A stretch of 24,000 nucleotides of DNA from Streptomycetaceae bacterium (lineage in GTDB: Bacteria > Actinomycetota > Actinomycetes > Streptomycetales > Streptomycetaceae): assembly GCA_019243445.1 (NCBI GenBank), contig JAFAUH010000302.1:1-24000 (forward strand), in the 5' to 3' direction. Made by a program: the position numbers and the translations under genes. Below the pieces are notes generated by a model. That model was not told the DNA's origin. It saw only the letters and a list, made by a program, of their open reading frames with translations, and searched no databases. This document shows, in pieces, positions 2,438-23,527 of this stretch (its first letter is position 1; every line of letters starts with the position of its first letter).

Positions 2438-2607
2438 CAGTCATTCCCCTCTGAAACGGTCTAGCCCCCTCTAAAACGGGCTGGTCCCCTTTTACCACCA
2501 TGCCCGGACAGACGTGCGATGGCTACTCCAGTACCACCCCAGTTACCTGGTTGCAGCAAAATCCGACCGACATCGGAATACTCGCTCCCCAAGTCCCAAG
2601 CCTCAGT

Positions 2608-2663
2608 TCCCAGGTCACAGCTCCCAGGTCACAGCTCCCAGGTCACAGGTCACAGCTCCCAGA
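2608..2663. repeat. Intergenic 14-bp tandem repeat (tcccaggtcacagc), about 3.5 units
   Basis: Perfect units at 2608-2621 and 2622-2635. Truncated or variant units at 2636-2648, 2649-2656 and 2657-2663. It lies 3' of the reductase stop (2706) and 170-225 bp upstream of the lipoprotein start (2437). Confidence 0.9.
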
Positions 2664-2705
2664 TCGTTAACGCGCAGGCGGTCGCTCGGGCGCTTGCCCT
2701 CACGC

Positions 2706-3998
2706 TCAGGACTTCGGTGCGACCTTGGTGAGCACGTTGATGATGCGGTCCATGGCGTCACCGTCCGTCGGATCCGTCAGATTCGCCAGCAGCTTCAGCG
2801 CGAATTTCGTCAGCCCTGGGTGCGTCAGACCGCGCTGTGCAGCTATCTTCATGATCGTCGGATTGCTGATCACCTTCACAAAGGCACGCCCGAGCGTGTA
2901 ATAGCCGCCGTAGGTCTCCTTGAGGATGCGCGGGTACGAGCGCAGGACGAGCTCCCGCTGAGCGGTCGTAGCCCGGGCGTGCGCCTGCACGATGACCTCG
3001 GCGGCGATCCGACCCGACTCCATCGCGTACGCGATGCCCTCCCCATTGAACGGGTTGACGAGCCCGCCCGCGTCACCGACCAGCAACAGACCGCGCGTGT
3101 AGTGCGGCTGACGGTTGAAGGCCATCGGCAGCGCCGCGCCACGGATCGGCCCGGTCATGTTCTCCGGGGTGTAGCCCCAATCCTCCGGCATCGAGGCGCA
3201 CCACGCCTTGAGGATCTCGCGCCAGTCGAGGTCCTTGAAGGCAGGAGAGGTGTTGAGGACGCCGAGCCCGACGTTGGACGTGCCATCGCCCATACCGAAG
3301 ATCCAGCCGTAGCCTGGCAGCATGCGGTCTTGGTCGCCGCGTCGGTCCCACAGCTCCAGCCACGACTCCAGGTAGTCGTCGTCGTGGCGCGGCGAGGTGA
3401 AGTACGTGCGGACGGCGACACCCATCGGCCGGTCCTCGCGACGGTGCAACCCCATGGCAAGCGACAGGCGCGTGGAATTGCCGTCGGCGGCCACGACGAG
3501 CGGGGCGTGAAAGGTGGCCGGGCTCTTCTCCTCGCCCAGCTTCGCCTCGACGCCGGTGATCCGACCGGTACGCGGGTCAGTGAGGGGGGCGGAGACATTG
3601 CACCTCTCATACAGCCGCGCGCCGGCCTTCTCGGCGTTGCGGGCGAGCTGCTGGTCAAAGTCGTCGCGCTTGCGCACCAGTCCGTAATCCGGGTAAGAGG
3701 CGAGATCCGGCCAGTCGAGCTGGAGCCGGACGCCGCCGCCGATGAGGCGCAGCCCCTTGTTGCGCAGCCAACCGGCCTCTTCCGAGATGTCGATGCCCAT
3801 GCCGACGAGTTCCTTGACGGCTCTCGGCGTCAGGCCGTCGCCGCACACCTTCTCGCGCGGGAAAGCCGTCTTCTCCAGAAGCAGGACGTCGAGCCCGGAC
3901 TTGGCAAGGTAGTACGCAGTGGCCGAGCCGGCGGGACCGGCCCCGACCACGATCACATCGGCGCTGTGCTCGGAGCAGGTTGCGGCGGTGTCGGTCAC
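2706..3998 (-). CDS. FAD-dependent geranylgeranyl reductase family protein (MenJ-like menaquinone side-chain reductase candidate)
   Basis: N-terminal Rossmann motif DVIVVGAGPAGSATAYYLAKSGLDVLLLEK and the CGDGLTPRA motif of the geranylgeranyl reductase family. GTG start has AAGGAGG 5 nt upstream (revcomp of 3999-4010). It sits next to menG/ubiE, as menJ does in mycobacteria. Confidence 0.85.
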   Translation of the reverse strand: MTDTAATCSEHSADVIVVGAGPAGSATAYYLAKSGLDVLLLEKTAFPREKVCGDGLTPRAVKELVGMGIDISEEAGWLRNKGLRLIGGGVRLQLDWPDLASYPDYGLVRKRDDFDQQLARNAEKAGARLYERCNVSAPLTDPRTGRITGVEAKLGEEKSPATFHAPLVVAADGNSTRLSLAMGLHRREDRPMGVAVRTYFTSPRHDDDYLESWLELWDRRGDQDRMLPGYGWIFGMGDGTSNVGLGVLNTSPAFKDLDWREILKAWCASMPEDWGYTPENMTGPIRGAALPMAFNRQPHYTRGLLLVGDAGGLVNPFNGEGIAYAMESGRIAAEVIVQAHARATTAQRELVLRSYPRILKETYGGYYTLGRAFVKVISNPTIMKIAAQRGLTHPGLTKFALKLLANLTDPTDGDAMDRIINVLTKVAPKS

Positions 3999-4139
3999 GG
4001 TGCCTCCTTGTTCGCCTCCGCCCGCGGTGGGCTCTCTCGGGGCGTCAGGCGGGATGCTGGCGAGGGCAGATGCTGTTCTTCTGCTGATGTCTTCTGCTGA
4101 TGCTGAGTACGGTCGAGTCTATGGGCAAGGCCCGCTCGT

Positions 4140-6295: not shown

Positions 6296-6340
6296 CAAAA
6301 AACCCACGAGCGACGCACGTCGGACGCTGTCGCTTCGTGG
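6296..6340 (-). terminator. Intrinsic terminator of the toxin/immunity/NTPase operon
   Basis: On the minus strand, immediately after the TGA at 6343-6341: CCACGAAGCGAC...GUCGCUCGUGG stem (one bulged A) followed by GUUUUUUG. Confidence 0.8.
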
Positions 6341-8581
6341 TCACCGCAGGATGCGCTGATCGTACTGCCAGCCGGTGATGCCCTCGTTCCCCGCGGCGAT
6401 CAGCATCCCGTCCCGGGTGAGGGCCAGCGCTGAGACGTCGTGGTGGGGATAGATGGTGATGCGATTGCCCAACCCCGGCCGCAGCAGATGGACGACGCGA
6501 TCGGCCCATGCCACAGCCATCACGGGGCCCGTAGCCGTCTCGGTGAGGGCCAGTGCCTTGGGCACCGACTCGCGGCGCGTCAGCGGCCTCGGCAACGGGG
6601 CACGGTCGCAATCCCACAACCGAATGGTTCCGTCGGTGGCTGCGGCGACGACCATCGTCACGCCGTTCCCGACACGCAGACAGCACACACCGGTGAGCGG
6701 CGCATCCGCAAGCCGCTCGACCCTGCTGAACGGGGCCTGGCCGAGAGCAGATCGGTCGAGAGCAGACTGGCTGAAAGCAAACAGGTGGGCGTTGCCCGTC
6801 ATATCCCCCACCACCAGGAGTCCGGCCTGCGGATCGCTGCCCACGCAGGTGGCGTTCACCCGGTCCGCCGGATCGACCGCATTGAACGGCGCCAGGATGT
6901 CCGCAGTCTGCGGCTGCTCTGCGCCACCGACCAGGTGGAGTACGCCGTCGTCACCGAGTACGACAATTCCGCCGTCCGCGAGTGGGGAAATGCCAGTGGC
7001 ACCGTTGGCCGGGGTGTTCACAGCTCGTCCGGAGATGGTCCCGTCGGCAGCGTTGATGATGTGGAGCTGACCTATCGGATCAGCTGCGATTACCTGAGTG
7101 GGGTGTGGTGTTGACGACGTCCCCGGGCTCAATGCGCCGATCGCACCCGGCCAATGCGCATCCGTCCCGCCGTTGTTCGGTATGAGTGAGGTGTGACGTA
7201 GGAAGGACCAGCGTGCGACAGCTGAGGCCTTCTCTGCCATAGGTGCGAGGAGTTCAGCCAGTCGCGGTGCGCTGGACAATGCGACCGCATGCAGCACGGA
7301 GGCACGTTTCTCCGCGTCGGGCAGTCCGCGATCGAGGATGGGCGCGGCCGGGTACCAGGTTGACCGCAGCGTCGGCGGAGTCTTCACCTTCGGATCGTCG
7401 AGGGCTTGGGTGATGGCAGCGGGGGATCCGTGGATGAGAAAGCCCGGATCGCTCATCAGGTGACTCAGGGAACGAGCATCCGGTGCGTGTCCGATGATGT
7501 GATCCAGTACATAGCGTGGGGCGTGCTCCCAGTCGAGCTGGCCTCTCGTGCTTTTGGGCACCAGGTCGAGAAGTGATGCGAAGAGCACCTGTGGAGTCGA
7601 GTGTTCATCAATCGCCTCGCTCTCCCGCCGTGCAATTTGGATCAGCTGAGGGAGCGGCAGCTTGAATTCCTGTACCTGTGGGGCAAGTTGCGCAGCGGCG
7701 GCGTCCACGGCGGCCCTGGCCGCGGCCTCGGAATCGGACGGGTGCAGTCCAGCGTGCAGCAGCCGCCATGTGGCGATGCCCATCTCCCCACGTGCCCATG
7801 CCAATGTCCGCAACGCGCTTCGCGCAGCTGGTTCCAGGCGACTCCACCACGCCGCGCAGATACTTGTGCGCGTATCTGGGCGCGTATCTGGGCGCGCGAT
7901 GCCTTGATCACTGGTGAGCCCTGCTGCGAGCCGCCCCAGAACGGGATGCGGGAAGACCTCTGCCGCGGGGACGGTGGGGCTGCCTCCCGTCAAGCGCGTA
8001 TACCAGGCGGCGTACTCCTCCTCGTCGGTCATCGCTGGATCGTCGAGGTCGATCGTCCGTACGGGGAAGTCGAAGCCGCTGCTGGTGAGGTCGCGTACCT
8101 CCGCAATCACGCGGACCCACGGCAGCGCCAGAAGTGGTTCCAGCACTTCGGTCACCAACAGGGAGCCAGGCCATCGGCCTCGAGTGCTCACCTGGTGCAG
8201 ATCTGGTATCGCGATCAGCAACGGGCGTTTGTCAGCCGTGACATGGATGATCAGATCGGACACTGATGCTGGGCCGTAGCCCAGTTGAAATGACAGCTCC
8301 CATACCAGCGGCGCCAGCGAAGCACCGGCCGCAGGAACCAGTGCGTTGACCTGGTCCGCCGCGTGTCCGGTCGCATGTCCGGAGGTGTGTCCGGCCGCGT
8401 GTCCGGTCGCGCCGCATGCGAACCAGGCGATGAGATGGCTCTTCCCCATCCCTGCCGAACCACCGACCAGGCATACCCGTTCCGCATCGGTGTCCGCTGC
8501 CCACTCAAGCAGCGCCCAGCCCGCCGGGGCACGGCCTGCCTCCAGCGGTGGCCGGTCGTCGGCGGGCAACGCGTTGTTCAC
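6341..8581 (-). CDS. STAND-type P-loop NTPase with C-terminal WD40-like beta-propeller
   Basis: Walker A is VCLVGGSAGMGKSHL and a Walker-B-like strand is RPLLIAIPDLH. A long helical middle region follows. The C-terminal third has repeated strand blades (QLHIINAADGTISG, GIVVLGDDGVLHLVG, LLVVGDMTGNAHLF, MVVAAATDGTIRLWD, VMAVAWADRVVHLL, MLIAAGNEGITGWQY). GTG start with GGAGGAG upstream. Confidence 0.75.
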   Translation of the reverse strand: MNNALPADDRPPLEAGRAPAGWALLEWAADTDAERVCLVGGSAGMGKSHLIAWFACGATGHAAGHTSGHATGHAADQVNALVPAAGASLAPLVWELSFQLGYGPASVSDLIIHVTADKRPLLIAIPDLHQVSTRGRWPGSLLVTEVLEPLLALPWVRVIAEVRDLTSSGFDFPVRTIDLDDPAMTDEEEYAAWYTRLTGGSPTVPAAEVFPHPVLGRLAAGLTSDQGIARPDTRPDTRTSICAAWWSRLEPAARSALRTLAWARGEMGIATWRLLHAGLHPSDSEAAARAAVDAAAAQLAPQVQEFKLPLPQLIQIARRESEAIDEHSTPQVLFASLLDLVPKSTRGQLDWEHAPRYVLDHIIGHAPDARSLSHLMSDPGFLIHGSPAAITQALDDPKVKTPPTLRSTWYPAAPILDRGLPDAEKRASVLHAVALSSAPRLAELLAPMAEKASAVARWSFLRHTSLIPNNGGTDAHWPGAIGALSPGTSSTPHPTQVIAADPIGQLHIINAADGTISGRAVNTPANGATGISPLADGGIVVLGDDGVLHLVGGAEQPQTADILAPFNAVDPADRVNATCVGSDPQAGLLVVGDMTGNAHLFAFSQSALDRSALGQAPFSRVERLADAPLTGVCCLRVGNGVTMVVAAATDGTIRLWDCDRAPLPRPLTRRESVPKALALTETATGPVMAVAWADRVVHLLRPGLGNRITIYPHHDVSALALTRDGMLIAAGNEGITGWQYDQRILR

Positions 8582-8623
8582 GTCTTCTCCTCCGCGGTAG
8601 GGCGTGACGTCAGTAGCCGGACG

Positions 8624-9184
8624 TCAGTAGCCGTACAGAATGCGTTCCACAATCTGGTACCAGTAGGACTCGGGGTCGGCGAAGGCAGTCGAATCCGCAG
8701 CACGGAGTTCGACCACGAGGTTGTCCGTCGCCTTCTTACGGGTCTCCAGATTCTTCGCCTCGATATATTCTCGATCACGGAAGAACGCGGTAATGAACAG
8801 AGTGAACAGATCGACGCTGCTGTTGAGGAAACCTGGCGCTTCCTCTCCGTCAACCATCACCCTGACCTCACCGGTGCTACCGTCCAGGATCACGGCGTCG
8901 TCGCCGTAACAAAATCCCATGGCGACCCAACTGTCCGCGGTCCGAGGCAGATCATCGATCTCGTAGATATCAGGACGCTCCGAGCGAAGATCCGGTAGTC
9001 CGGAGGCCACCGTGTCCACGGTCTGATAGATGAAGTCGGATACATCCGGAACCCCGACTTCGGCAAGAAAGCGGGCTGTGGCCGTGTGAGTGACGGCGGG
9101 ATTCAGCAGTTCCGCAGGAACGGTGGCGACATGGGCAGGGCCGAATGCCGCTTCCAGCTCACTGCGCGAGATCGCGAAGCTCAT
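8624..9184 (-). CDS. SUKH-4-like immunity protein (stand-alone)
   Basis: 186 aa. It is clearly paralogous to the N-terminal roughly 180 aa of the next gene. Compare FLAEVGVPDV / LLVECGIPRQV, SWVAMGFCYGDDAVILDGSTGEVR / SWLCLGRDQGAQLCLDPSGKVR, NSSVDLFTLFITAF / NGSLDAFLESLIAL and PESYWYQIVERI / PDSWWSRVVEDI. Size, pattern and adjacency to toxin deaminases fit the SUKH-4 immunity family as I recall it. GAGGAG RBS 5 nt upstream of the ATG. Confidence 0.6.
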   Translation of the reverse strand: MSFAISRSELEAAFGPAHVATVPAELLNPAVTHTATARFLAEVGVPDVSDFIYQTVDTVASGLPDLRSERPDIYEIDDLPRTADSWVAMGFCYGDDAVILDGSTGEVRVMVDGEEAPGFLNSSVDLFTLFITAFFRDREYIEAKNLETRKKATDNLVVELRAADSTAFADPESYWYQIVERILYGY

Positions 9185-9256
9185 CGGACTCCTCGGTGGT
9201 GCGGTGCGCGGGGCTGTCGTGTGCGATCCTGTGCGGTCGTTGCGAGGGTGACGGGT

Positions 9257-10105
9257 TCATTTCACCGCGGCCTGCCGCAGGAGGGCGAGGAAGCTCGCTT
9301 CTCGGGACTGTGCAGTCTGCCCGTAACCAAAGGAATGGGTGAATTCTGCATGCGGGAATTCTCTTGCCATCCATACAGTGCAGTAGTGTCCGGGCATGAA
9401 ACAAGGTTCCAGCTCGGTGTGCACCTTCTTCACCTGAGCGGGAGTGACGCCGGCTTCCCGTAGACCGTTCCAGATCCGCTCTTCCGGATGCAGGCACATG
9501 CCGCCCGGTTCGCTCACGATCTGCTTCTTCCCTTCAGCGTCGGTGAACTCGAAGGCGGCAAAGGAGGCATGCGAGCTGGTGTGCCGGATGTCCTCGACCA
9601 CTCGCGACCACCAGGAGTCGGGCGACTGCACCGCCCCTTGTTCGATGACCGCGAGCCGCCGCAGCAGGGTACGGATGTGCGTTGCTCTTTCCGGTACGTT
9701 CCGGGTAGCACCGATCAGGGCGAGCGCTTCGTCCAACGCGATGAGCGATTCAAGGAAGGCGTCCAGGCTCCCGTTGACGAGCGCCCCGGGATCACCGGAC
9801 GCATCGAATTCGGCTCGCACCTTCCCTGACGGGTCCAGGCACAGTTGCGCTCCCTGGTCCCTCCCGAGGCAGAGCCAAGATGCCTTTCCGCCGGTGTCAT
9901 CCGTGTCCGCCGTCCCGTGATAGGCACCCAACCGGAGGGAGTCGCTCTCCGACGACAGAAAATAAGGACCGACCTGCCGAGGTATTCCACATTCGACAAG
10001 AAGAGGAATTCGTCCGGCATCCGGACCGATATTTCCCACCATGAATCGCCGAATACCGGACGAACCGAAGCGCGCCACGATTCTTGCTCGAAGGTCGTCA
10101 GACAT
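9257..10105 (-). CDS. SUKH-4-like domain fused to a C-terminal toxin-type (CDA-fold) deaminase domain
   Basis: The N-terminal 180 aa are homologous to the 8624-9184 product. The C-terminal roughly 90 aa carry zinc-deaminase motifs HPE (CLHPEERIW) and PCx6C (ELEPCFMPGHYCTVWM). Its tail REFPHAEFTHSFGYG parallels the upstream deaminase tail KYFPGTDVSHSFIYG. Confidence 0.65.
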   Translation of the reverse strand: MSDDLRARIVARFGSSGIRRFMVGNIGPDAGRIPLLVECGIPRQVGPYFLSSESDSLRLGAYHGTADTDDTGGKASWLCLGRDQGAQLCLDPSGKVRAEFDASGDPGALVNGSLDAFLESLIALDEALALIGATRNVPERATHIRTLLRRLAVIEQGAVQSPDSWWSRVVEDIRHTSSHASFAAFEFTDAEGKKQIVSEPGGMCLHPEERIWNGLREAGVTPAQVKKVHTELEPCFMPGHYCTVWMAREFPHAEFTHSFGYGQTAQSREASFLALLRQAAVK

Positions 10106-10143
10106 GCTTCATATCCTACATCCTCGCGGCACACCTATGGAGA

Positions 10144-10920
10144 TCACTTGAACAGGTCTTTCAGGTAGCTTGCATGAGCCTCGTTCCCCACCGTCTCATC
10201 CTCCTTCTCCGGGCCGTAGATGAAGGAGTGAGAAACATCTGTCCCCGGGAAATACTTCGCGAGCCACGCGGCACACTTCGGACTGCGCCGCTGACACGGG
10301 GCTCTTTCACTGTAGGCCGCAACGACATCACCGGTCAGATTGCCATTCTCCTTATTGGCCAGGAATGGCACTCCGGCGTACTGCTCGGAGTGCGAACCGT
10401 ACGACTTGCTCCGGCCTACCAGAATAAATTCGCCGTCTTTTCCTTTGTAGTGGAACGCGGCGTAATTATTCGCGCCTTCATCCCCCATGGCGCCCCGGGC
10501 CTGCTGGGTGGCCCTCGACAGCTCCGTCGTCCCTGGAGCAACTTCCTCGGAGTTCACCATCGGCCATTCCTTGCCGGGGGATTTGGGACCGAGGAGATAC
10601 TCTCCGGGTTTCTTTCCGAGGGTTTTGTTCTCGTCATCCAGGATATTACGGATCCCGGACGTGTCATGGAGTGCGACTTCGGTCAGTTCGTTTTCCCCGA
10701 CCTTCATGACCTTGCCCTCGTGGTCGACCATGTACACGGGGACTCTGTCCGCTATGTCTTCCTCGACCTTTTCGAAATGAGTGGCGGCATCGCGGGCCAT
10801 GGTGCCGATGCGGTCGTGGGCGGCGGCAAGCGCCCGGGGTATCTTCTCGCTGATGTGCCCGAGGATTTCGACGGTGGGTTTGACTATTTTCTCAACTATC
10901 TCCGCCATACCGTCTTTCAA
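10144..10920 (-). CDS. Toxin-type nucleic acid/nucleotide deaminase (CDA fold; SCP1.201-like or YwqJ-like clade unresolved), possibly the C-terminal half of a split polymorphic toxin
   Basis: HSE (GSHSEQYAG) and PCx6C (SERAPCQRRSPKCAAWL) are spaced 32 residues apart. The preceding strands AAFHYKGKDGEFILVGRS fit a deaminase core. The only start candidates are TTG at 10920, which overlaps the upstream stop by 4 nt, or ATG at 10908. The N-terminal 140 aa look like a linker rather than a domain. Confidence 0.65.
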   Translation of the reverse strand: MKDGMAEIVEKIVKPTVEILGHISEKIPRALAAAHDRIGTMARDAATHFEKVEEDIADRVPVYMVDHEGKVMKVGENELTEVALHDTSGIRNILDDENKTLGKKPGEYLLGPKSPGKEWPMVNSEEVAPGTTELSRATQQARGAMGDEGANNYAAFHYKGKDGEFILVGRSKSYGSHSEQYAGVPFLANKENGNLTGDVVAAYSERAPCQRRSPKCAAWLAKYFPGTDVSHSFIYGPEKEDETVGNEAHASYLKDLFK

Positions 10921-11642
10921 CCCCCCGTGGTGAAGGTCAGCGCTCCGACTTTATTGCTGAAATCTCGGCCCCCGTTGATGTTGGCATCGGCTTCACGCTT
11001 GATCATTTCTCCGTGGGTACGTATGGCCGCGGTATCGAGCTTGAGAGCGGGTACCTGACCTCCGATGCTCAGATGGGCGACCTCGGCGAAGAGCAGCCTC
11101 TGCACTGACTGGTCTATCCGCTCCATGATCGGTCCGATGGTGGAGTTCACCAGGGCGCCGACCACCTCGGATTCGAAGCGCTGCAGGATGGCGTTGATGA
11201 TACGATTCTGCGCCTCGATGAAAATGGGTTCCGCGGCCTCCGCCAGGCCCGCAGTGGCCACCGCGGCCACCTGATCGGCAGCGAACTCCGCTGCCGCTAT
11301 GCCGAGTTGGACGATAACCTCGCCCTTCATCCCCTCTACCCCGATGGCCGCCACATCAAGACCGTCAGCCAGCAGCCGGCACACCTCGATCAGATCTTTC
11401 ATATGTCCGGAAGACTGATCGGCCCACACCTGAGCCAGCGCGGTGTACGACTGTGCCGTGTAGGCCCGTTGCAACTCTCCGTTGACGATGCCGTGGGTGC
11501 GTCCGTGCGACTGCTCGCACTCTTCGGCATAGGAACGCAGGTGCTTGGCTGCCTCGCGAAGCTGGTCCTCGTCGATCTCTGGCCAGTTGAAGCCCAGTAT
11601 CCCCATGATCTCAACAAGCCAGTGCGGCAAGTTGATAGCCAC
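10917..11642 (-). CDS. WXG100/LXG-like helical N-terminal trafficking module of a T7SS-type polymorphic toxin (no toxin domain in this ORF)
   Basis: The N-terminus MAINLPHWLVEIMGILGFNWPEIDEDQLREAAKHLRSYAEE...ALAQVWADQSSG resembles the WP-x-x-DED-x-L helical hairpin found at the N-termini of actinobacterial secreted toxins (from memory). The remainder is Ala-rich helical. GTG start with GGGGGAGG 6 nt upstream. It ends ...FTTGG-stop on a G6 run. Confidence 0.55.
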   Translation of the reverse strand: MAINLPHWLVEIMGILGFNWPEIDEDQLREAAKHLRSYAEECEQSHGRTHGIVNGELQRAYTAQSYTALAQVWADQSSGHMKDLIEVCRLLADGLDVAAIGVEGMKGEVIVQLGIAAAEFAADQVAAVATAGLAEAAEPIFIEAQNRIINAILQRFESEVVGALVNSTIGPIMERIDQSVQRLLFAEVAHLSIGGQVPALKLDTAAIRTHGEMIKREADANINGGRDFSNKVGALTFTTGG

Positions 11643-12108
11643 GGCCGCCTCCCCCGGTTCAATGAACGCTCTACCCCATCACCACACATCCTATGATCTG
11701 CCCGTCAATCCTGCTGTCAACACGGTGAATTGATGACACGTGATGACGTGCTCGTGACGCCAACGTGATCCGTGCGTTCGCAGCATCGGGAAACCGCAGC
11801 AGAGACCAGCCACTGATCCGTCAGGCGATCACCTGCCCGACGTGGCAGGAGGGGCGGCCGCCGGTTCGGGTGTCAGATGCTGGTATGACCGAGGTGTTCA
11901 ACATGAGCGTGATGTCCCTGGGAAGACTCCCCGCGCGCGAGGCCGATCTGTGACGACACCACCATCCGCCGTTGATTCCGATCGTGTACCGAACAAGCCC
12001 AAGGCGCCCTGAAGTGACCAGGTCGCACGCCGTGCACGGTACGTTGGGCGCACGGCTGGGCATACGGGGGTCGTTGAGCATCGAAGTACGTAGGTAACGG
12101 GAGGGTCA

Positions 12109-13722
12109 GTGGACCAGACGCCGGAATGGGGCCGGAGTGATAGAGGTGGCGCCTGGAATCCGGGTGGGGACAGAAGCTTCGGCGCAGGCGCCGGGGTAGG
12201 TGGTCCTGGCAGGACCGGTGGTGATGCATGGGCCGGACAGGCCGACTACGGCGCGGGGTCGTCGGGTGGCGGCAGTTACGCCGGGCTCGCTGCTGAGGCG
12301 GACGCGCTCTCCGGCCGTCTGCCCGAGGGCTTTCAACTGCTGCGACGGGCCGGAAGGGGCCGGCACAGCAGCGTGCTGCTGTGCCGCGAGGACGCGACCG
12401 GGCAAGAGGTCGCGCTGAAAATACTCAACTTGACGGTGGAGGACGAGGGCCTGCGGCTGGCCACTCACTCCGAGCTGCTCTCCGCGGGGGCCGCGGCGAA
12501 ACACCCGTGCTCGGTGCTGGTCGAGGACGCCGGCTTTACGCCCGACAATCGACCATATCTCGTCGAGCAGTTCTGCCAAGGCGGAAATGCTCAGTCAAAG
12601 CTGAATAATTCGGGCACCTTCTCGGTGGACGAGGTCATCATCATCGGGATACGGCTGGCGCTGTCGCTGAGTTCGGCGCACCGCCGCGGCGTCCTGCACT
12701 TGGACGTACGACCCGCGAACGTGCTCTTCGACGGGGCCGGGGACGCACTGCTCGCCGATCACGGCATCGCCCGTATCATCCAGCGGTCCGCACCGCAGCT
12801 CGGGGCCGTTTTCGACCCGATGTACTCCGCGCGCGAGATGTTCGGCTGGGAGAAGCCGGGGCCGTCCGCCGATATCTACGGCCTCGGGGCGACGCTCTAT
12901 GCGCTGCTCAACGGCCTTCCCGCGTATGCCGAGGCGGGCAGCACCAGTTGGTCGGCACTCTACAACGAGGTGCTGCGTGGCGAATTCCCACCGCCGAACC
13001 GGCACGATGTGCCACCGCAGCTGTTCGACCTCATCAGCCGCATGATGTCGGTGAACCCGGAGGGCCGCCCTCCGCTCACCGAAGTGCACCGGGTGCTGCG
13101 GATGATGATGCCTGCCGGGTATGGCGTCCGGGTACCGGCGCTCGACCCGGAGCCGGAGCCCGAGCCGATGCTGCCAGGCTGGGATCCGGCCGAAGACATC
13201 ACGCCGGAGGAGCAGGCGGAAGCCGAACGGATAGGCGCTGAGGCCGAGGCGGAGGCGCAGCGGCGTCGCCGCATGTGGATCGCTTCGGGCGCGGTCCTGG
13301 TCCTTTTCGTTGCGGGGGCCACGGCGATCACCGTGTACCACGAGAAGAACAAGGCGAAGGAGAAGGCGTCCGCCAGCCCCGCGCTGCCCAAGGGGCCGGT
13401 GCCCGCGAGCGAACAGGCTGAGTTCATGCCGCAGGACGTGATGGTGACAAAAGTCAACGGGACCGTGCAAGTGGCGTGGAAGGCCCCGAAGAACATGAAA
13501 TCGGTGGTTTCCTACGCAGTGCAGGTGGCTCTCCCTGCCGCCAATGGTCAAAAGAGGGGCGGTCAGTTGCAGACGACGACACTGGCCAATCCCGAGGTGA
13601 TCTTCAGCGCGCCCGAGGACGTACAGTCCGACGACTGCTACGTCGCCGCGTCGGTGGTGAAGGCTGCCAATGGCGAGCTGCAGTATGCGGCTGCGCGACC
13701 TGTGTGCAATACGGCGGGATGA
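12109..13722 (+). CDS. Membrane-anchored Ser/Thr protein kinase-like protein (Hanks fold, single TM, extracytoplasmic beta-rich domain)
   Basis: Gly-rich disordered N-terminus. Kinase core has EVALKIL (Lys), HRRGVLHLDVRPANVLF (catalytic loop, HLD instead of HRD), LLADHGIA (DHG instead of DFG) and SAREMF...SADIYGLGATLYALLNG. TM segment MWIASGAVLVLFVAGATAITVY. C-terminal roughly 130 aa with FN3-like strand pattern (VTKVNGTVQVAWKAP...SYAVQV). GTG start after GGGAGGG. Confidence 0.8.
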   Translation: MDQTPEWGRSDRGGAWNPGGDRSFGAGAGVGGPGRTGGDAWAGQADYGAGSSGGGSYAGLAAEADALSGRLPEGFQLLRRAGRGRHSSVLLCREDATGQEVALKILNLTVEDEGLRLATHSELLSAGAAAKHPCSVLVEDAGFTPDNRPYLVEQFCQGGNAQSKLNNSGTFSVDEVIIIGIRLALSLSSAHRRGVLHLDVRPANVLFDGAGDALLADHGIARIIQRSAPQLGAVFDPMYSAREMFGWEKPGPSADIYGLGATLYALLNGLPAYAEAGSTSWSALYNEVLRGEFPPPNRHDVPPQLFDLISRMMSVNPEGRPPLTEVHRVLRMMMPAGYGVRVPALDPEPEPEPMLPGWDPAEDITPEEQAEAERIGAEAEAEAQRRRRMWIASGAVLVLFVAGATAITVYHEKNKAKEKASASPALPKGPVPASEQAEFMPQDVMVTKVNGTVQVAWKAPKNMKSVVSYAVQVALPAANGQKRGGQLQTTTLANPEVIFSAPEDVQSDDCYVAASVVKAANGELQYAAARPVCNTAG

Positions 13723-13740
13723 CCCCGTAAACGGCACGAC

Positions 13741-13775
13741 GGTGCGCCGCCGAGAGTGATACCTCGGGGCGCACC
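13741..13775. terminator. Hairpin between convergent kinase and WXG100 genes
   Basis: ggtgcgccgccgag / ctcggggcgcacc inverted repeat (one bulge) with an 8-nt loop, between the stops at 13722 (+) and 13799 (-). Confidence 0.55.
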
Positions 13776-13798
13776 GCTACGCAATGCTGAACTGCTGC

Positions 13799-14095
13799 TC
13801 AGTGGCCAATGCCGTGCGCCAGGCTCTCGTCCGCCTGACGGAAGGCGTCGGCGGCCTGGTGCAGGAACTTCGCCATGCCGGTGAGGCCGTCGATGGTCTG
13901 CGTCGCGCCCTTGTTGAACTCGGTGTACGACTGCTCGAACGCCTTCGAGGAGCGGTCGGTCACGTAACCGTCGTTCACCAACTGGTTGACGAAGCTCTGG
14001 AGCTGGTGCAGCTTGTCGGTGATCTCCTGCTGCCCGCTGGTCAGCTTGTTCGCCGCGTCCTGCATCTGGTCATAAGTGACGTTTACGTTGGCCAT
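13799..14095 (-). CDS. WXG100-family (EsxA-like) small helical secretion substrate, Trp-less variant
   Basis: 98 aa with a predicted helix-turn-helix layout. Start MANVNVTYDQMQDAANKLTSGQQEI and mid-turn ...NDGYVTDRSSKAFEQSYTEF align by eye to EsxA ...ANWEGQAFSRFEEQF. It is divergently adjacent to an EssC/EccC-like ATPase. Confidence 0.7.
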   Translation of the reverse strand: MANVNVTYDQMQDAANKLTSGQQEITDKLHQLQSFVNQLVNDGYVTDRSSKAFEQSYTEFNKGATQTIDGLTGMAKFLHQAADAFRQADESLAHGIGH

Positions 14096-14160
14096 ATCGG
14101 CAACCCCTCATTTCACGCCTCAGGGCCTGTCCCCCGTGGCTCCTGGCTACTTCGTTTCTA

Positions 14161-14181
14161 GCAGGTTGCATGACAACCTGC
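14161..14181. promoter_or_regulatory. Perfect 8-5-8 inverted repeat in the divergent WXG100/essC-like promoter region (candidate operator)
   Basis: gcaggttg-catga-caacctgc, located 66 bp from the WXG100 start and 291 bp upstream of the ATPase start. Confidence 0.25.
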
Positions 14182-14471
14182 CCGGCTTTGCCAGTTGTTC
14201 AGCTTACGGGCAGGGACGCGGGAGTGCACCCCCCGGTTCCCGGCAGACGTCCGCGAACCAACTACCGCCCCCACCATACAGTCAGCACATATTCACGTTT
14301 TCTGCACGTTCCCCCATATCTCCCCCCACCTTCGCCTGGGCGGCTGTCGTACCCGTCAGGCATCATGGTTCCCATCACAAGCCGAGCGGCTTCGCGCAGA
14401 GAACAGGAACATGCGCAGGCGCCGTGCAGGCACCGCGCATTGCACCGACAACATCGCCCAGGGGGACGGCC

Positions 14472-17400
14472 GTGGAACTGCAGCTCAGCGTCATTGACCC
14501 AGTCCGTGCGGACCGTTCGGACATGCTGGTCGACGCCGATCCCGCAGCACCGGTCGGCGCGCTCGCTGTCGAGATCGCCCGGCAGCTCGGGATGCCCGAC
14601 GACGGGCAGGGCCCGCCCAGGCTGCATATCAACGGCTTCATAGTCGACCCCGAGGTCAGCCTCGACGCCTCGCCCGTGCGTGACGGCGCGCTGGTCTCGA
14701 TAGCCGCGCCCGCCCCGCTTCAGGCACCCGACGCGCAAGGCACCGTCGAGGTACGGGTCGTGGGCGGTCCGGATGCCGGCGGTGTGTACCGGCTGGGGCC
14801 CGGCATGGCCGTCGTCGGCAGCGGGACGGAGGCGTGGATCCGGCTCGCCGACGCGCAGTTGCCGCAGTCCGCGGTCGAGGTGGACGTCGCGATTGACGGC
14901 AATGTGACCGTGCGCCCTTCGGCAGGCGCCTCCGTCACCCTCGACGGCGAGCCGCTCACCTCCGCCAAGCCGTGGCGGCGGCGTAGCGTCATCAGCGTCG
15001 GCCAGTCGCTGATCGAGCTGCAGCATCCATCCTTCCCCGACGCCGCGTTGAAGCCTTCCGAAGACGGCACAGGGCTGGATTACAACCGGCCGCCGCGTAT
15101 CACCCCGCCGCCGCGACCGACGAAGTTCAACCTGCCGGCGAAACCCAAGCAGGGCGAGGCACGTCCGCTGCCCTGGCTCATGGCGGCGCTGCCGCTGGTC
15201 GGCTCCCTCGTGATGTTCATGGCGATGCGGCCGCATAATCCGATGTATCTGTCCATGGCGCTGCTCAGTCCCCTCACCATGGTGGGCAACTACCTCAACG
15301 ACCGTAAGCGCGGCAAGAAGTCGTTCCGCCACACCCTCGCCGACTACGAGAAGCAAAAGGACTCCATTGATCGGCAGGCGCGCAAGGCGGTCGCCGCCGA
15401 GACGGGCGCGGCGCGCGAGCTGTGCCCCGACCCGGCGCAGGTACTGATCACCGCGACCGGCCCTGGTATGCGACTGTGGGAGCGTCGGCGCGCCGACGCC
15501 GACTACGGGCTGCTGCGGGTCGGCACGGGCACCCTGCCGTCGGAGGTCGAAGTCTCCGACCCCGCACAGGAGGAGCACCGGCGTATCTCGCACCGCAAAC
15601 TGCTGGACGCGCCGGTGACAGTGCCGATGACCGTCCACAGCGTGCTGGGCATTGCGGGACGCGGTGAGGTGCCGCGCATGATCGGCCGCTGGCTGATAGC
15701 CCAGGCCGCCGTGTTGCACTCTCCGGCGGATTTGTCCGTCTGCGTGCTCACCGACCCGAGCGGACGGCACAGTTGGGAATGGGTGCGCTGGCTGCCGCAT
15801 GCCCGGGCCCGGGAGGGCCAGTCGGCCTTGGCTTTGATCGGTACGGACGCCGACAGTGTGGCGCGTCGCATCAGTGAGCTGCTCGCCCAGTTGACTGCCC
15901 GTCAGGATGCGGCGCGTGAGGCGGGTATGCAGGCCAACCAGGTCTGGAGCGGCCCCACTACTCTCGTTGTCCTCGACGGATCGCGACGGCTGCGCGCGCT
16001 GCCGGGCCTGACGCAGATCCTGCGCGACGGCCCGAAGGTCGGCATCCACCTGATCTGCCTCGACGCCGACCGCCGGCTGCTGCCTGAGGAGTGCAAGGGG
16101 GTGGTCGAGGAGGATTACTACGGGCTGCTGTCGGTCTCGATCGCCGGTCAGGAGCCGGTGACCCAGGTGCGCCCCGACTGTGTCTCGCCCGAGTGGTGTG
16201 AGCAGGTCGCCCGCTCTATCGCGCCGATACGTGACATCAGTGGTGACGACGGCGCGGCGCTGCCCGACGCCTGCCGTCTGCTGGACGTCATCGATCTGGA
16301 GCCGCCGACGACAGCCGGGATCACGGCACGCTGGTCGCTGAGCGGGCGCAGCACAAGCGCCGTGGTCGGTGCCTCCTTCGACGGGCCGTTCGCCATCGAC
16401 TTGGTGCGGGACGGGCCGCACGGCCTGGTCGCCGGCACCACTGGTTCCGGTAAGTCGGAGCTGCTGCAGACCATTGTCGCCTCGCTCGCCGTAGCCAACC
16501 GGCCGGACGCGATGACATTCGTCCTTGTCGACTACAAGGGCGGTTCGGCGTTCAAGGACTGTGTGAAACTGCCGCACACCGTCGGCATGGTCACCGACCT
16601 CGACACCCACTTGGTGGAGCGAGCGCTGGAGTCGCTCGGCGCCGAACTGCGCCGCCGTGAGCACATCCTCGCCGCGGCCGGTACGAAGGACCTCGAGGAT
16701 TACATCATTGCGATGCGCACCAACTCGTCGCTCGCACCGATGCCGCGCTTGCTCATCGTGATCGACGAGTTCGCGTCCATGGCGCGGGAACTGCCGGACT
16801 TCGTCACAGGTCTGGTCAATATCGCGCAGCGAGGCCGTTCGCTGGGCATTCATCTGATCCTGGCCACGCAGCGGCCCTCCGGTGTCGTCTCGCCCGAGAT
16901 CCGCGCCAACACCAATCTGCGGATCGCATTGCGCGTGACGGACGCCGCCGAGTCGTCCGACGTCATCGACGCGCCCGACGCCGGGCACATCGCCAAGTCC
17001 ACGCCGGGGCGGGCGTATGTGCGCCTTGGCGCCTCCTCGCTCCTGCCGTTCCAGTCCGGCCGGGTCGGCGGGCGGCGGCCGGGCCAGGTCGCGTCGAAGG
17101 CTCCTGCGCCGTTCACGGTCCCGGTCGGGTGGGAGGCACTGGGCAAGCCGGCGCCCGAGCGCCCGCAGGGGCCGAAGTCCAACGACGACGATCTGCTCAC
17201 CGACCTCGCGGTCCTGGTCGATGCGATCATCGGTGCCAATGAGCAGTTGGGGCTACCGCCGCAGCACAGCCCGTGGCTGCCCGCGCTCCCGGACTCCACC
17301 ACGCTGGACGATCTGGAGCCGCCGCGCTATCTGTCGCGGGACGGTTTGCTGCCGGCCCCGTTCGCCGTCGAGGACCTGCCATCGCAGCAGGCGCGCCGCA

Positions 17401-18875
17401 CCACCTCGATCGAGCTGCCGACCTTCGGTCACCTGATCATCGCGGGTTCGCCGCGTACCGGCCGCTCACAGGCGCTGCGTACGATCGCGGGTTCACTCGC
17501 CCGCGCCAACTCCCCTGCGGATCTGCATCTTTACGGTCTCGACTGCGGCAATGGCGCGCTGCTGGCCCTTACCCAGTTGCCGCACTGCGGGGCCGTGGTC
17601 CGCGCCAATGAGCCGGATCGCGCCGAGCGGCTCATCAACAACCTGTCGGCCGAGGTACAGCGGCGCATGGCGCGGCTCGGCGAGCGCGGCTTCACCGACA
17701 TCAACGAGCAGCGTCTCGGAGTTCCGGAAGGCGAGCGGCTGCCGCACATCATGCTGCTGCTCGACCGCTGGGAGGGCTTCCTGCCCTCGCTCGGCGAGAT
17801 GAACTCCGGCGCGCTCACCGATGCCGTCTTCCAGCTGATGCGTGAGGGTGCCTCGGTCGGCATCCACGTGATCGTCGCCGGTGACCGCACGGTGCTCGTC
17901 GGCCGGATCTCAACGCTGACCGAGAACAAGCTGGCATTCCAACTGAGCGACTCATCCGACTTCAGCGTGATCGGTCTCAACCCGCGCAAGGTACCGGAGA
18001 AGATGGCGCCCGGCCGTGCCTTCCGCCAGGGCGCCGTCGAGACACAGGTCGCACTGCTCACCGAGGATCCCAGCGGCCAGGCACAGTCGGCGGCGATCGG
18101 CACGATCGCCCAGTGGGCAAAGGGCCGCTGGGACAACGTGCCGCGTTCACGTCTTCCGTTCCGAGTGGACGTGCTGCCGGGCCGGATCAGCTTCGAGGAG
18201 GCGTGGGAGCTGCGCGACGTCAGCGACCAGGCGGTCAACAGCCCCCTGTGGGCGCTGACCGCGGTCGGCGGCGACCAGCTCACCGCCATCGGCCCGGATC
18301 TGCGTCAGGGCAGTCCGGCATTTGTCATCGCGGGTCCGCCGCGCTCCGGGCGCTCCACCGCGCTGCTGACGATGACGCGCTCGCTGATGTCGGCCGGCAC
18401 CCAGGTGATCCTGGCTGCGCCACGCCGCCAATCGCCGCTGCGCCGCCTTAAGCACGCGCCGGGCGTGATCGGATACTTCACGGAGGAGGAGATCTCCGGG
18501 GCCGAGATGGAGGAGGCGCTGAACCGGGTGCAGGGATCGGCAGCGATCATCGTCGACGACGCGGAGCTGCTGCGCCAGTGCGATGCGAGCGAGCTGCTGA
18601 CCCAGGTGGTGCGCCGCTCGACGGGTAAGGACATCGCCTTGGTGATCGCTGGCGACGCGGACGGCGTGTGCGGCGGTTTCTCCGGCTGGCAGGTGGAGAT
18701 GAAGAAGGCCCGGCGCGGTCTGCTGCTCTCGCCGCAGAATCTGTCGGATGCCGATCTGATCGGTGTGCGGCTGCAGCGTAGTGCGATCGGCCAGGCGATT
18801 CAGCCCGGCCGCGGGCTGCTGCACCTTGGCGACGGCGAGGCTCGTACCGTCCAGGTGCCACTCACAGCGCTGTAG
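14472..18875 (+). CDS. EssC/EccC-like type VII secretion ATPase: ubiquitin-like (YukD-like) domain, FHA, 2 TM, three FtsK/SpoIIIE P-loop domains
   Basis: N-terminal roughly 85 aa are VELQLSVIDPVR...ALAVEIARQLGM...INGFIVDPEVSLDASPVRDGALVSI (beta-grasp pattern). FHA-like segment is VEVRVVGGPDAGGVYRLGPGMAVVGSGTEAWIRLAD...VTLDGEPL...ISVGQSLIEL. Two TM segments are PLPWLMAALPLVGSLVMFMAM and MYLSMALLSPLTMVGNYL. Walker A motifs are GTTGSGKSELL, GSPRTGRSQAL and GPPRSGRSTAL, with Walker B motifs LLIVIDEFA, IMLLLDRWE and AIIVDDAE. The ORF is open from 14076, but that part overlaps the WXG100 gene. GTG at 14472 follows GGGGGA. An alternative GTG lies 16 codons upstream. Confidence 0.85.
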   Translation: MELQLSVIDPVRADRSDMLVDADPAAPVGALAVEIARQLGMPDDGQGPPRLHINGFIVDPEVSLDASPVRDGALVSIAAPAPLQAPDAQGTVEVRVVGGPDAGGVYRLGPGMAVVGSGTEAWIRLADAQLPQSAVEVDVAIDGNVTVRPSAGASVTLDGEPLTSAKPWRRRSVISVGQSLIELQHPSFPDAALKPSEDGTGLDYNRPPRITPPPRPTKFNLPAKPKQGEARPLPWLMAALPLVGSLVMFMAMRPHNPMYLSMALLSPLTMVGNYLNDRKRGKKSFRHTLADYEKQKDSIDRQARKAVAAETGAARELCPDPAQVLITATGPGMRLWERRRADADYGLLRVGTGTLPSEVEVSDPAQEEHRRISHRKLLDAPVTVPMTVHSVLGIAGRGEVPRMIGRWLIAQAAVLHSPADLSVCVLTDPSGRHSWEWVRWLPHARAREGQSALALIGTDADSVARRISELLAQLTARQDAAREAGMQANQVWSGPTTLVVLDGSRRLRALPGLTQILRDGPKVGIHLICLDADRRLLPEECKGVVEEDYYGLLSVSIAGQEPVTQVRPDCVSPEWCEQVARSIAPIRDISGDDGAALPDACRLLDVIDLEPPTTAGITARWSLSGRSTSAVVGASFDGPFAIDLVRDGPHGLVAGTTGSGKSELLQTIVASLAVANRPDAMTFVLVDYKGGSAFKDCVKLPHTVGMVTDLDTHLVERALESLGAELRRREHILAAAGTKDLEDYIIAMRTNSSLAPMPRLLIVIDEFASMARELPDFVTGLVNIAQRGRSLGIHLILATQRPSGVVSPEIRANTNLRIALRVTDAAESSDVIDAPDAGHIAKSTPGRAYVRLGASSLLPFQSGRVGGRRPGQVASKAPAPFTVPVGWEALGKPAPERPQGPKSNDDDLLTDLAVLVDAIIGANEQLGLPPQHSPWLPALPDSTTLDDLEPPRYLSRDGLLPAPFAVEDLPSQQARRTTSIELPTFGHLIIAGSPRTGRSQALRTIAGSLARANSPADLHLYGLDCGNGALLALTQLPHCGAVVRANEPDRAERLINNLSAEVQRRMARLGERGFTDINEQRLGVPEGERLPHIMLLLDRWEGFLPSLGEMNSGALTDAVFQLMREGASVGIHVIVAGDRTVLVGRISTLTENKLAFQLSDSSDFSVIGLNPRKVPEKMAPGRAFRQGAVETQVALLTEDPSGQAQSAAIGTIAQWAKGRWDNVPRSRLPFRVDVLPGRISFEEAWELRDVSDQAVNSPLWALTAVGGDQLTAIGPDLRQGSPAFVIAGPPRSGRSTALLTMTRSLMSAGTQVILAAPRRQSPLRRLKHAPGVIGYFTEEEISGAEMEEALNRVQGSAAIIVDDAELLRQCDASELLTQVVRRSTGKDIALVIAGDADGVCGGFSGWQVEMKKARRGLLLSPQNLSDADLIGVRLQRSAIGQAIQPGRGLLHLGDGEARTVQVPLTAL

Positions 18876-21658: not shown

Positions 21659-21834
21659 GGCAGTTCCACTCTTTCGTTCCGGTTCGATATCCGCAGGTCA
21701 GGTATACAGGTATACCTCTCCAGTGAAGCATGGAAAGCCAAGGGACGGCCCGCAGGGTCTCCGACAGGGGCGGGGTCCCCCAGGCAGTTCGTATGCCAGA
21801 CGTATGTGCCAGACCTATGTATCAGACACATGCG

Positions 21835-22998: not shown

Positions 22999-23071
22999 GC
23001 CGCCTCCTTCGTTCGCACTGCCCAACCGAGGTTACGCCCCGACTCTGACACTCTGCCGGTCAGCCCGTCGG

Positions 23072-23527
23072 TCACTCCTGCTCGGGCAGCTCGCCGACCC
23101 GGTTCTCCCACTTCGTCGACAACACAACGGTGGTACGGGTACGGGCGACGCCCTTGATGCCGGAGAGCCGTCGGATGGTGTGTTCCAGCCCGTCGACGTC
23201 CGGGACGCGGACCTTGAGCATGAACGAATCGTCACCCGCGATGAACCAGCAGTCCTCGATCTCCTCAAGATCGTTCATCCGCTGGGCCACGTCCTCGTGG
23301 TCGGCGGCATCGCTCAACTGGATGCCGACGAGCGCAGTGGCGCCGAGGCCGAGCGCCGCCGGGTTGACGGTGGCCCGGTAGCCGGTGATAACCCCGGCTT
23401 GCTCCAGCCGGTTGATGCGATCGGTGACGCTGGGGCCGGAAAGTCCGACGAGCCGTCCGAGCTCCGCGTAGGAGGCCCTGCCGTTCTCCCGGAGAGCCTG
23501 GATGAGCTGCTTGTCCACCGCGTCCAT
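23072..23527 (-). CDS. Lrp/AsnC-family transcriptional regulator
   Basis: N-terminal HTH DKQLIQALRENGRASYAELGRLVGLSGPSVTDRINRLEQAGVI plus a C-terminal RAM/AsnC_trans_reg-type domain. Confidence 0.9.
   Translation of the reverse strand: MDAVDKQLIQALRENGRASYAELGRLVGLSGPSVTDRINRLEQAGVITGYRATVNPAALGLGATALVGIQLSDAADHEDVAQRMNDLEEIEDCWFIAGDDSFMLKVRVPDVDGLEHTIRRLSGIKGVARTRTTVVLSTKWENRVGELPEQE

Follow-up and report, generated by a model that had tools for sequence, protein, structure and literature searches.

A conserved actinomycete gene module linking a deaminase toxin and its immunity protein to a SUKH-4–deaminase fusion and an Apaf-1-like NTPase

Organization of the five-gene cassette

The 24,000-nucleotide stretch of Streptomycetaceae contig JAFAUH010000302.1 analysed here (the window) contains a cassette of five tightly packed minus-strand open reading frames (ORFs) that span positions 6341–11642 in the ORF listing. 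The genes are arranged in the order W-D-SD-S-N, where W (g1) encodes a WXG100-like helical protein, D (g2) a deaminase, SD (g3) a SUKH-4 domain fused to a second deaminase, S (g4) a free SUKH-4 protein, and N (g5) a STAND-type NTPase (Table 1). WD denotes g1 and g2 fused into one gene. Comparison with other genomes identifies the five-gene unit as a conserved, apparently horizontally moving module of Streptomycetaceae and Actinomadura-type actinomycetes.

The cassette had been outlined in a first-pass annotation made from the sequence alone. Its five gene positions and its gaps of 38 nt (g2–g3), 72 nt (g3–g4), and 42 nt (g4–g5) are reproduced here, and purine-rich Shine-Dalgarno-like motifs precede all five starts, in agreement with the claim that each gene has its own. 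The 4-nt overlap reported between g1 and g2 exists only if g2 starts with TTG. An alternative ATG start at position 10908, twelve bases further in, would leave a gap of 8 nt. This ATG is probably the true start, because it is preceded by an AAGGA motif, the starts of homologues agree with it, and the gap in a homologous locus (L001) is likewise 8 nt.

The promoter candidate upstream of g1 is a consensus match only; three such sites occur in the region, compared to 1.1 expected from shuffled sequences. The region downstream of g5, annotated previously as a canonical terminator, contains a hairpin with the stem CCACGA(A)GCGAC / GUCGCUCGUGG followed by GUUUUUUG with six U residues. The hairpin has a folding energy of −23.1 kcal/mol, but its z-score is only −1.85 and a pattern scanner for terminators did not call it, presumably because of its long loop. 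To the eye, the hairpin and U-run appear to be a real terminator.

A perfect 14-nt tandem duplication (two copies of GACGTCAGTAGCCG, positions 8606–8633) extends across the g4 stop codon and the g4–g5 spacer. It looks like a recent slippage event, and the g4 protein is unaffected because the first copy holds the stop.

Table 1 Features of the cassette, its surroundings, and a variant module in other loci
Feature	Position	Strand	Description
g1 (W)	10917..11642	-	241-residue WXG100-like helical protein; N-terminal trafficking half of the toxin, a separate gene here
g2 (D)	10144..10920	-	Pre-toxin region and C-terminal XOO_2897-clade deaminase; HSE...PCx6C
g3 (SD)	9257..10105	-	SUKH-4 domain fused to second XOO_2897 deaminase; HPE...PCFMPGHYC
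g4 (S)	8624..9184	-	Free SUKH-4 protein; Pfam SUKH-4 3.6e-29, 102.6 bits (cut-off 25.5)
g5 (N)	6341..8581	-	746-residue Apaf-1-like STAND-type NTPase; P-loop, helical domains, C-terminal WD40-type propeller
Promoter candidate, sigma-70-like	11693..11720	-	TTGACA-16-GATCAT; 10/12 consensus matches; ~50 nt upstream of g1
Terminator-like hairpin and U-run	6296..6340	-	Directly after g5 stop codon
Ser/Thr kinase	12109-13722		Part of T7SS-like cluster
Canonical WXG100 (Esx-like) gene	13802..14107	-	Pfam WXG100 5.3e-18; 2.1 kb from cassette; context only
EssC/EccC-like T7SS ATPase	14076..18875	+	1599 residues; FHA-like N-terminus, FtsK/SpoIIIE domains; context only
GGR-like FAD oxidoreductase	2709-4118	-	Real gene under shadow ORF 2514-4100
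MqnE-like radical SAM gene	21838-23031	-	Real gene under shadow ORF 21730-23157
Variant module in other loci	L089 1810-7340; L092 4516-10241		SseB-like, EspC-like, T7SS_signal toxin, g5-type NTPase-WD40

The toxin and its probable immunity protein

Profile searches confirm the domains assigned previously to g1–g4, whereas the assignment of g5 is supported by the match of its predicted structure to Apaf-1. Protein g1 belongs to Pfam family WXG100_2 (E = 5.6e-12, 46.3 bits against a cut-off of 27) and has a weaker match to WXG100 (0.003). Its match to NCBIfam TIGR03930 (2e-4) is under the cut-off, and NCBIfam provided no above-threshold addition for the cassette proteins. No sequence relative of g1 with a solved structure was found. 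Residues 150–241 of g2 match Pfam XOO_2897-deam (3.1e-11, 43.7 bits, cut-off 27). The deaminase fold expected from the first-pass annotation is thus present, but the clade is XOO_2897 and not SCP1.201 or YwqJ, the families suggested there. Both the deaminase and the SUKH fold are represented in the cassette by Pfam matches (XOO_2897-deam and SUKH-4) above the cut-offs.

The distribution of the genes was surveyed by searching the six-frame ORFs of 83 non-redundant loci carrying the g3-type fusion with the five window proteins. Homologues of g1 and g2 form a single ORF of ~580 residues in 51 of the 83 loci and are split as in the window in 18. By this comparison, g1 and g2 are the split form of one predicted toxin, a correction to the first-pass annotation. 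A pseudogenised split is ruled out by the intact frames and tight spacing kept in at least 18 split loci. The catalytic motif of the toxin deaminase is intact in g2; among the homologues, 20 of 22 split ones and 50 of 51 fused ones retain it.

The g4 protein is probably the immunity protein against the g2 deaminase; in other gene orders, the free SUKH-4 gene is positioned directly downstream of the fused toxin. Sequence comparison places g1 and g2 together with g4 among polymorphic toxin and immunity pairs of the T7SS (type VII secretion system) kind, as a putative ordinary member of a described kind, and we infer that the toxin leaves the cell through a T7SS. Table 1 of Iyer et al. 2011 (PMC3239186) pairs an XOO_2897 deaminase with SUKH4 immunity and delivery through a T7SS, and in a base-editor screen, members of this clade deaminated cytidine in single-stranded DNA (bioRxiv 10.1101/2023.05.21.541555). 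The trafficking domain joined to an XOO_2897 deaminase, with an adjacent SUKH-4 gene, resembles the polymorphic toxins described there and by Zhang et al. 2011/2012 (PMC3113570, PMC3482391). In contrast to those, the pair in the window is tied to a SUKH-4–deaminase fusion and a STAND-like NTPase, neither of which was found in the three papers. Furthermore, instead of the swapped toxin domains of polymorphic toxins, all W-bearing toxins identified in module loci carry an XOO_2897 deaminase, although this sample is biased because the loci were chosen via the deaminase fusion.

The SUKH-4–deaminase fusion protein

Both domains of g3 are above the Pfam cut-offs: SUKH-4 with 6.2e-13 (49.7 bits, cut-off 25.5) and XOO_2897-deam with 5.1e-22 (78.3 bits, cut-off 27). 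The catalytic residues of the deaminase are invariant in all 24 aligned sequences, and the HxE...C...C motif is kept in 84 of 84 fusion ORFs. No sequence relative of g3 with a solved structure was found, and Pfam detected no recognisable secretion domain in it. The AlphaFold model of g3 is a compact two-domain fold with a predicted local distance difference test (pLDDT) score of 89.8 and a predicted template modelling (pTM) score of 0.89; the pTM suggests that the SUKH-4 domain and the deaminase are held in fixed contact. The structures nearest to the deaminase domain are APOBEC3H, APOBEC3B, and AID, in line with PMC3239186, where the XOO_2897 clade is placed close to AID/APOBEC. The fusion gene occurs alone in five loci, which indicates that its product is tolerable to the cell on its own.

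Immunity-type and deaminase domains are known to be combined in a single polypeptide in the OTT_1508 clade, which Table 1 of PMC3239186 lists with "Immunity: SUFU (fused)". However, the immunity domain in that case is SUFU and not SUKH-4, the deaminase belongs to another clade, and no associated NTPase was reported.

The Apaf-1-like NTPase

Protein g5 contains the Walker A motif GSAGMGKS and Walker B motif LLIAIPDLH. In its AlphaFold model (pLDDT 82.7, pTM 0.76), a small P-loop domain is joined by helical domains and a propeller of the WD40 type. The top five matches of the model in a Foldseek search of the PDB are full-length Apaf-1 or apoptosome chains, including 3shf, 3sfz, 3j2t, and 5juy, with E-values from 1.6e-16 to 1.8e-13 over ~890 alignment columns; plain WD40 propellers rank next. 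The template modelling scores of the Apaf-1 matches are low because the domain orientation differs. The order of P-loop, helical, and WD40 domains, as well as the multicellular actinomycete hosts, liken g5 to Apaf-1 and to bacterial NLR-like STAND systems, among them Avs, bNACHT, and the NTP-dependent conflict systems of multicellular bacteria (PMC7159879). The g5 family differs from these in its coupling to immunity domains of secreted-toxin loci and in missing the Pfam thresholds for STAND domains. Because g5 has no N-terminal effector or adaptor domain, its effector would have to come in trans.

The canonical Walker A sequence GxxxxGK[ST] is present in 71 of 78 g5 homologues, and GxxxxGR[ST] in five. 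The arginine-containing clade (GSxGSGRT) includes the Kitasatospora loci L020, L030, L035, and L053, and proteins P0095–P0105, and the NTPase of L045 lacks the Walker A lysine.

Just past the Walker A helix, at 8358–8410 (g5 residues ~58–75), the gene contains a perfect 17-nt repeat, 36 nt apart. It encodes a low-complexity insert rich in His, Gly, Ala, and Thr (GHAAGHTSGHATGH), which has a pLDDT of less than 50 and is missing from all aligned homologues.

Conservation, rearrangement, and mobility of the module

The g3 fusion family comprises 48 protein clusters, all with both Pfam domains, and tblastn confirmed the fusion in 254 species-representative genomes. The carriers belong to Streptomyces, Kitasatospora, Actinacidiphila, Actinomadura, and Spirillospora. 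In 76 of the 83 loci, a g5 homologue and the fusion are no more than 10 kb apart, in accord with the earlier view that the STAND-like NTPase and the cis-fused SUKH-4–deaminase protein belong to the unit. N is usually the next gene downstream of SD. Its start is positioned within −4 to +105 nt of the stop of SD in 51 of 66 loci, with a 4-nt overlap in 18 of these, a spacing that points to frequent translational coupling of the two genes. The co-occurrence together with the tight SD–N spacing rules out chance adjacency of g5.

The fusion and the NTPase are conserved at 40–60% identity across the 76 loci. The free SUKH-4 gene was detected in 69 of the 83 loci, and further loci carry one too divergent for the search used. 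Gene order varies from clade to clade. The commonest order is SD-N-WD-S; W-D-SD-S-N and WD-S(-S)-SD-N also occur, and arrangements in Kitasatospora and Actinomadura are divergent. Two pairs are kept through the changes of order: the toxin with the free SUKH-4 gene (WD-S) and the fusion with the NTPase (SD-N). All-against-all clustering of neighbouring ORFs provided no further module gene; its largest cluster covers 15 of 83 loci and reflects local synteny. Genes for a helix-turn-helix protein with DUF5753 and for a C39-ABC transporter were rejected as module members, being common Streptomyces paralogue families.

The conserved SD–N pair bears on whether the locus is an ordinary polymorphic-toxin locus, in which an orphan toxin/immunity cassette was fused by chance and stands beside an unrelated STAND gene. 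Strings of alternating toxin and immunity genes as well as orphan cassettes are common in such loci (PMC3113570, PMC3482391), and in window order g3 can be read as a first immunity domain fused to a second toxin (imm1::tox2), followed by the second immunity gene (imm2). Nevertheless, the fusion, with both domains intact, and the NTPase stay together on plasmids and through several changes of gene order, and their genes appear coupled, which makes this explanation exceedingly improbable. A chance assemblage of orphan cassettes is, on the comparison of loci, effectively excluded. The related suggestion in the first-pass annotation, that g3 is an orphan cassette and g5 a loose accessory, does not agree with a conserved and often coupled pair.

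Several observations indicate that the module moves between genomes. In five loci with g5 homologues, all or most cassette genes are present in the same order with entirely different flanks, and a sixth, which lies next to an integrase fragment, is reduced to a truncated g3, g4, and g5. The fusion is found on four Streptomyces plasmids. On one of them (L098, NZ_CP054921.1, 94097–106927), SD-N-WD-S is positioned between resolvase and tyrosine recombinase genes, and the PGAP names of the module genes are only generic. No convincing direct or inverted repeats that could be insertion scars were found at the flanks.

The foreign origin proposed on the basis of nucleotide composition agrees with the unrelated genomic contexts of the cassette, the plasmid copy between recombinase genes, and a lowered GC content at third codon positions (GC3). 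The GC contents counted by hand for four 60-nt lines were reproduced: 0.483 (8761–8820) and 0.55 (10381–10440) inside the cassette, and 0.633 (16441–16500) and 0.683 (3061–3120) outside. The composition shift of the whole cassette is modest. Its GC content is 0.626 compared to 0.659 in the remaining window, and the GC3 of its five genes is 0.69–0.75 compared to 0.80–0.84 in the flanking genes, a drop of ~0.1.

Two module copies are present in the same metagenome-assembled genome (ES1.bin.47; L009 and L010), and one Kitasatospora locus (L018) contains two fusions with several SUKH-4 genes, suggesting duplication and diversification of the module within single genomes.

Evolutionary rates of the module proteins

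Mean pairwise identities were compared across 59 complete loci. The SD deaminase is the most conserved (0.61), followed by the SD SUKH-4 domain (0.47), the W domain (0.46), the NTPase and the toxin deaminase (both 0.42), and the free SUKH-4 protein (0.31). The values fit a toxin and free immunity protein that evolve fast, as in an arms race, and an SD deaminase that is comparatively constant. The strongest correlation of pairwise distances, 0.74, is that between the SD SUKH-4 domain and N.

Relatives of the NTPase and a possible role in toxin export

Protein g5 is identical to a protein of a Streptomycetaceae metagenome-assembled genome. Beyond this, only about a dozen close homologues of g5, 42–50% identical, were found in a database of 5.8 billion sequences. 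Since a profile search with g5 in a large protein database was swamped by WD40 proteins, its N-terminal 460 residues were used for an exhaustive search of 1.84 billion representative proteins, which provided only 198 relatives. By this measure, the g5 NTPase family is small and specific. Its distant relatives are proteins combining caspase, NACHT or nSTAND1, and WD40 domains, and relatives such as P0122 and P0145 do reach the NACHT or nSTAND1 models.

In two relatives, P0082 (from a JGI contig) and P0093 (L088 10001–12277), a helical N-terminal domain and a g5-like NTPase are followed, where g5 has its WD40 propeller, by a SUKH-4 domain at the C-terminus (Pfam E-values 1e-19 and 6e-26). This domain is 32% identical to g4 (E = 3e-17). 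Both genes stand alone, and neither a toxin nor a deaminase gene lies in their neighbourhoods. The N-terminus of P0093 has a motif resembling that of the W domain (hhalign probability 81%, E = 1e-5, 39 columns only), for which BLAST provided no support. Another relative, the NTPase-WD40 protein P0097, is encoded directly after a different toxin, which combines a T7SS_signal domain (7e-73) with an unrelated C-terminal domain; SseB-like and EspC-like genes come before the toxin gene. P0097 carries an N-terminal extension of 215 residues, and a homologue of part of it is a separate gene right after the toxin, in the immunity position, in the metagenomic locus L092. In L089, by comparison, the extension is part of the NTPase. 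The common thread of these arrangements appears to be an NTPase family fused or adjacent to immunity-type, putative toxin-binding domains of T7SS-type toxin loci.

It is possible that g3 and g5 are accessories that help the toxin leave its producer. The SUKH-4 domain of g3 would hold the toxin deaminase before secretion, g5 would act as a substrate-specific NTPase for targeting or release of immunity, and the g3 deaminase may ride on the toxin as a co-exported second warhead. T7SSs export folded complexes and use dedicated chaperones, for example EsaE for EsaD-EsaG in S. aureus. A WXG100-type toxin is almost always present in the module, a related NTPase directly follows the T7SS_signal toxin with its EspC-like and SseB-like helper genes, P0093 opens with the W-like motif, and the window itself carries WXG100 and EssC-like ATPase genes 2 kb from the cassette. 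However, the solitary NTPase–SUKH-4 fusions have no toxin gene nearby, g3 lacks a recognisable secretion domain, and the SD deaminase changes far more slowly than that of the toxin, which is unexpected for a second warhead facing target immunity. T7SS core genes were found near the module in only three of the 83 loci, and conserved linkage of the module to these genes is ruled out. To our knowledge, characterised STAND NTPases are always switches and never unfoldases or targeting factors. We regard the export role as unlikely on balance, although it is the main alternative to the switch proposed below. If true, g5 would be the missing substrate-specific NTPase for actinobacterial T7SS toxins and would bear on the question of how tight toxin–immunity complexes are separated before secretion.

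Relation to known systems and anti-phage defence

The combination had been described as absent from known T7SS toxin loci and named defence systems, and it was found neither in PADLOC nor in the papers searched. In PADLOC-DB 2.0, g1–g4 have no match and g5 has only P-loop-level matches (DndF 0.006, Avs2 0.035). Neither the four-part module nor the NTPase family was found described in the polymorphic-toxin and deaminase surveys (PMC3239186, PMC3113570, PMC3482391), surveys of NTP-dependent conflict systems of multicellular bacteria (PMC7159879, PMC8195603), a 2026 STAND survey, or full-text literature searches. Neither SUKH nor WXG is mentioned in PMC7159879 or PMC8195603. The component families are known. 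Their conserved combination appears to be new, and so does the way in which an Apaf-1-like NTPase is coupled to immunity domains.

Firmicute LXG/WXG100 T7SS loci (EsaD-EsaG-EsaE; Tel/LXG with Lap) resemble the module in that a helical targeting module of the WXG100 superfamily, which may be a small protein of its own, accompanies a toxin and an immunity gene. They differ in that the WXG100_2 family of g1 is a distinct Pfam family. We know of no P-loop/WD40 protein or immunity–toxin fusion in such loci, nor was one found in the papers searched. From an actinobacterium, an LXG effector has been described together with its targeting factor and immunity gene (PMC12691689).

The Apaf-1-like architecture of g5 and its caspase-NACHT-WD40 distant relatives might indicate an anti-phage abortive infection system, in which the g5 propeller would sense a phage protein and direct one deaminase or both against the DNA of phage or host, and the WXG100-like domain would be an adaptor instead of a secretion signal. 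The mobile-island appearance of the cassette, with its GC3 drop and the plasmid copy flanked by recombinases, is consistent with this. Pairs of an ATPase and a deaminase occur in defence, for example in RADAR (RdrA ATPase and RdrB deaminase), which, like the module, combines a large ATPase and an effector deaminase. The RdrB enzyme is of the adenosine-deaminase type and does not have the CDA/APOBEC fold. However, no PADLOC model matches the module, and no known defence genes are consistently nearby. The fusion is absent from all 50,697 phage records searched, with no phage-linked signal in either direction. Furthermore, the W domain belongs to the WXG100 superfamily, the layout of toxin and immunity genes is classical, and their fast evolution fits interbacterial conflict better. 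A function in defence against phages is therefore improbable.

Proposed mechanism

The reading that we tentatively prefer, while judging it to have somewhat less than an even chance of being correct, is that a deaminase toxin–immunity pair is coupled to a switch resembling nucleotide-binding leucine-rich repeat (NLR) receptors, which employs an immunity-derived SUKH-4 domain and a latent deaminase. The WXG100-like N-terminal domain would carry the C-terminal XOO_2897-clade cytidine deaminase toxin, which the free SUKH-4 protein g4 would neutralise inside the producer. Proteins g3 and g5 would form the intracellular switch. The SUKH-4 domain of g3 would serve both as an immunity-derived toxin-binding element and as a latch, and the deaminase, catalytically intact, would be a latent output silenced in cis. 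Upon a trigger, g5, a nucleotide-dependent switch without an effector of its own, would change its nucleotide state or oligomerize and act on g3, freeing or deploying the deaminase. The likeliest trigger may be the engagement of the SUKH-4 domain by a deaminase toxin, perhaps along with a ligand that binds the propeller.

We favour such a switch because of the Apaf-1-like fold of g5 and the SUKH-4 domain in the sensor position of its relatives, because solitary fusions and solitary NTPase–SUKH-4 genes exist, and because the g3 deaminase evolves slowly. Several points weigh on the other side. The distance correlation of 0.74 between the SD SUKH-4 domain and N is weak evidence, since module genes are inherited together and all the correlations are positive. 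The g5 propeller is only slightly more variable than the NTPase domain (mean identity 0.46 compared to 0.56) and appears to lack the hypervariability typical of pathogen sensors. The g5 scores are below the Pfam cut-offs for AAA_16 (17.9 bits, cut-off 32.6) and NACHT (12.9 bits, cut-off 26.7), and WD40 is also sub-threshold. The Walker A lysine is replaced by arginine or missing in part of the homologues; NTP hydrolysis is therefore perhaps not universal in the family. A role in export would explain equally well why SD-N is linked almost without exception to a secretion-type toxin and why a related NTPase lies next to another toxin, the one with T7SS_signal. Finally, suicide in answer to a toxin that does not replicate would be without obvious benefit.

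A more specific possibility is that g3 and g5 provide effector-triggered immunity against interbacterial toxins, with the SUKH-4 domain as bait and the latent deaminase unleashed upon its engagement; we consider this unlikely. If it were true, an intoxicated hyphal compartment would be killed or hypermutated, which would spare spores a genome mutagenised at sub-lethal levels, and the wider NTPase family, in which SUKH-4 or other immunity domains are fused at one end or the other, would be a general class of toxin-sensing receptors in actinomycetes. A STAND/SUKH-4 pair that senses toxins would be a bacterial receptor for interbacterial effectors that derives from an immunity protein, parallel to the integrated-decoy receptors of plants.

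Toxin–immunity loci and NLR-like STAND systems have so far been treated as separate branches of the biology of bacterial conflict, and the module ties both together genetically in hundreds of actinomycete species. Its two APOBEC-like cytidine deaminases are compact, appear to be regulated naturally, and come with putative protein inhibitors that match them, which may make them of practical interest for base editing.

Surroundings of the cassette in the window

The cassette is embedded among genes of menaquinone (futalosine) synthesis, which encode a GGR-like oxidoreductase, UbiE, MqnC, MqnA, and an MqnE-like protein. It is adjoined, at a distance of ~2 kb, by a small T7SS-like cluster (12109–18875) that the first-pass annotation does not mention. 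The EssC/EccC-like ATPase of the cluster has NCBIfam matches to EssC (3.3e-173), EccCa (1.3e-124), and EccCb (7.4e-94), all under the curated cut-offs, and Pfam matches to FtsK_SpoIIIE (3e-57) and the FHA-like Yop-YscD_cpl (2.5e-6). It is possible that this ATPase is part of the exporter of the toxin encoded in the window. No homologue of the canonical WXG100 gene was found in other module loci. Only two of the 82 other loci, both from Actinomadura, carry an EccC-like gene less than 10 kb from the module; the adjacency is therefore suggestive for this genome and not a conserved feature.

Two long plus-strand ORFs at 2514–4100 and 21730–23157, with a GC3 of ~0.65 and a GC content at first codon positions (GC1) of ~0.82, were rejected as genes. 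They are antisense shadows of the minus-strand genes for the GGR-like oxidoreductase and the MqnE-like protein.

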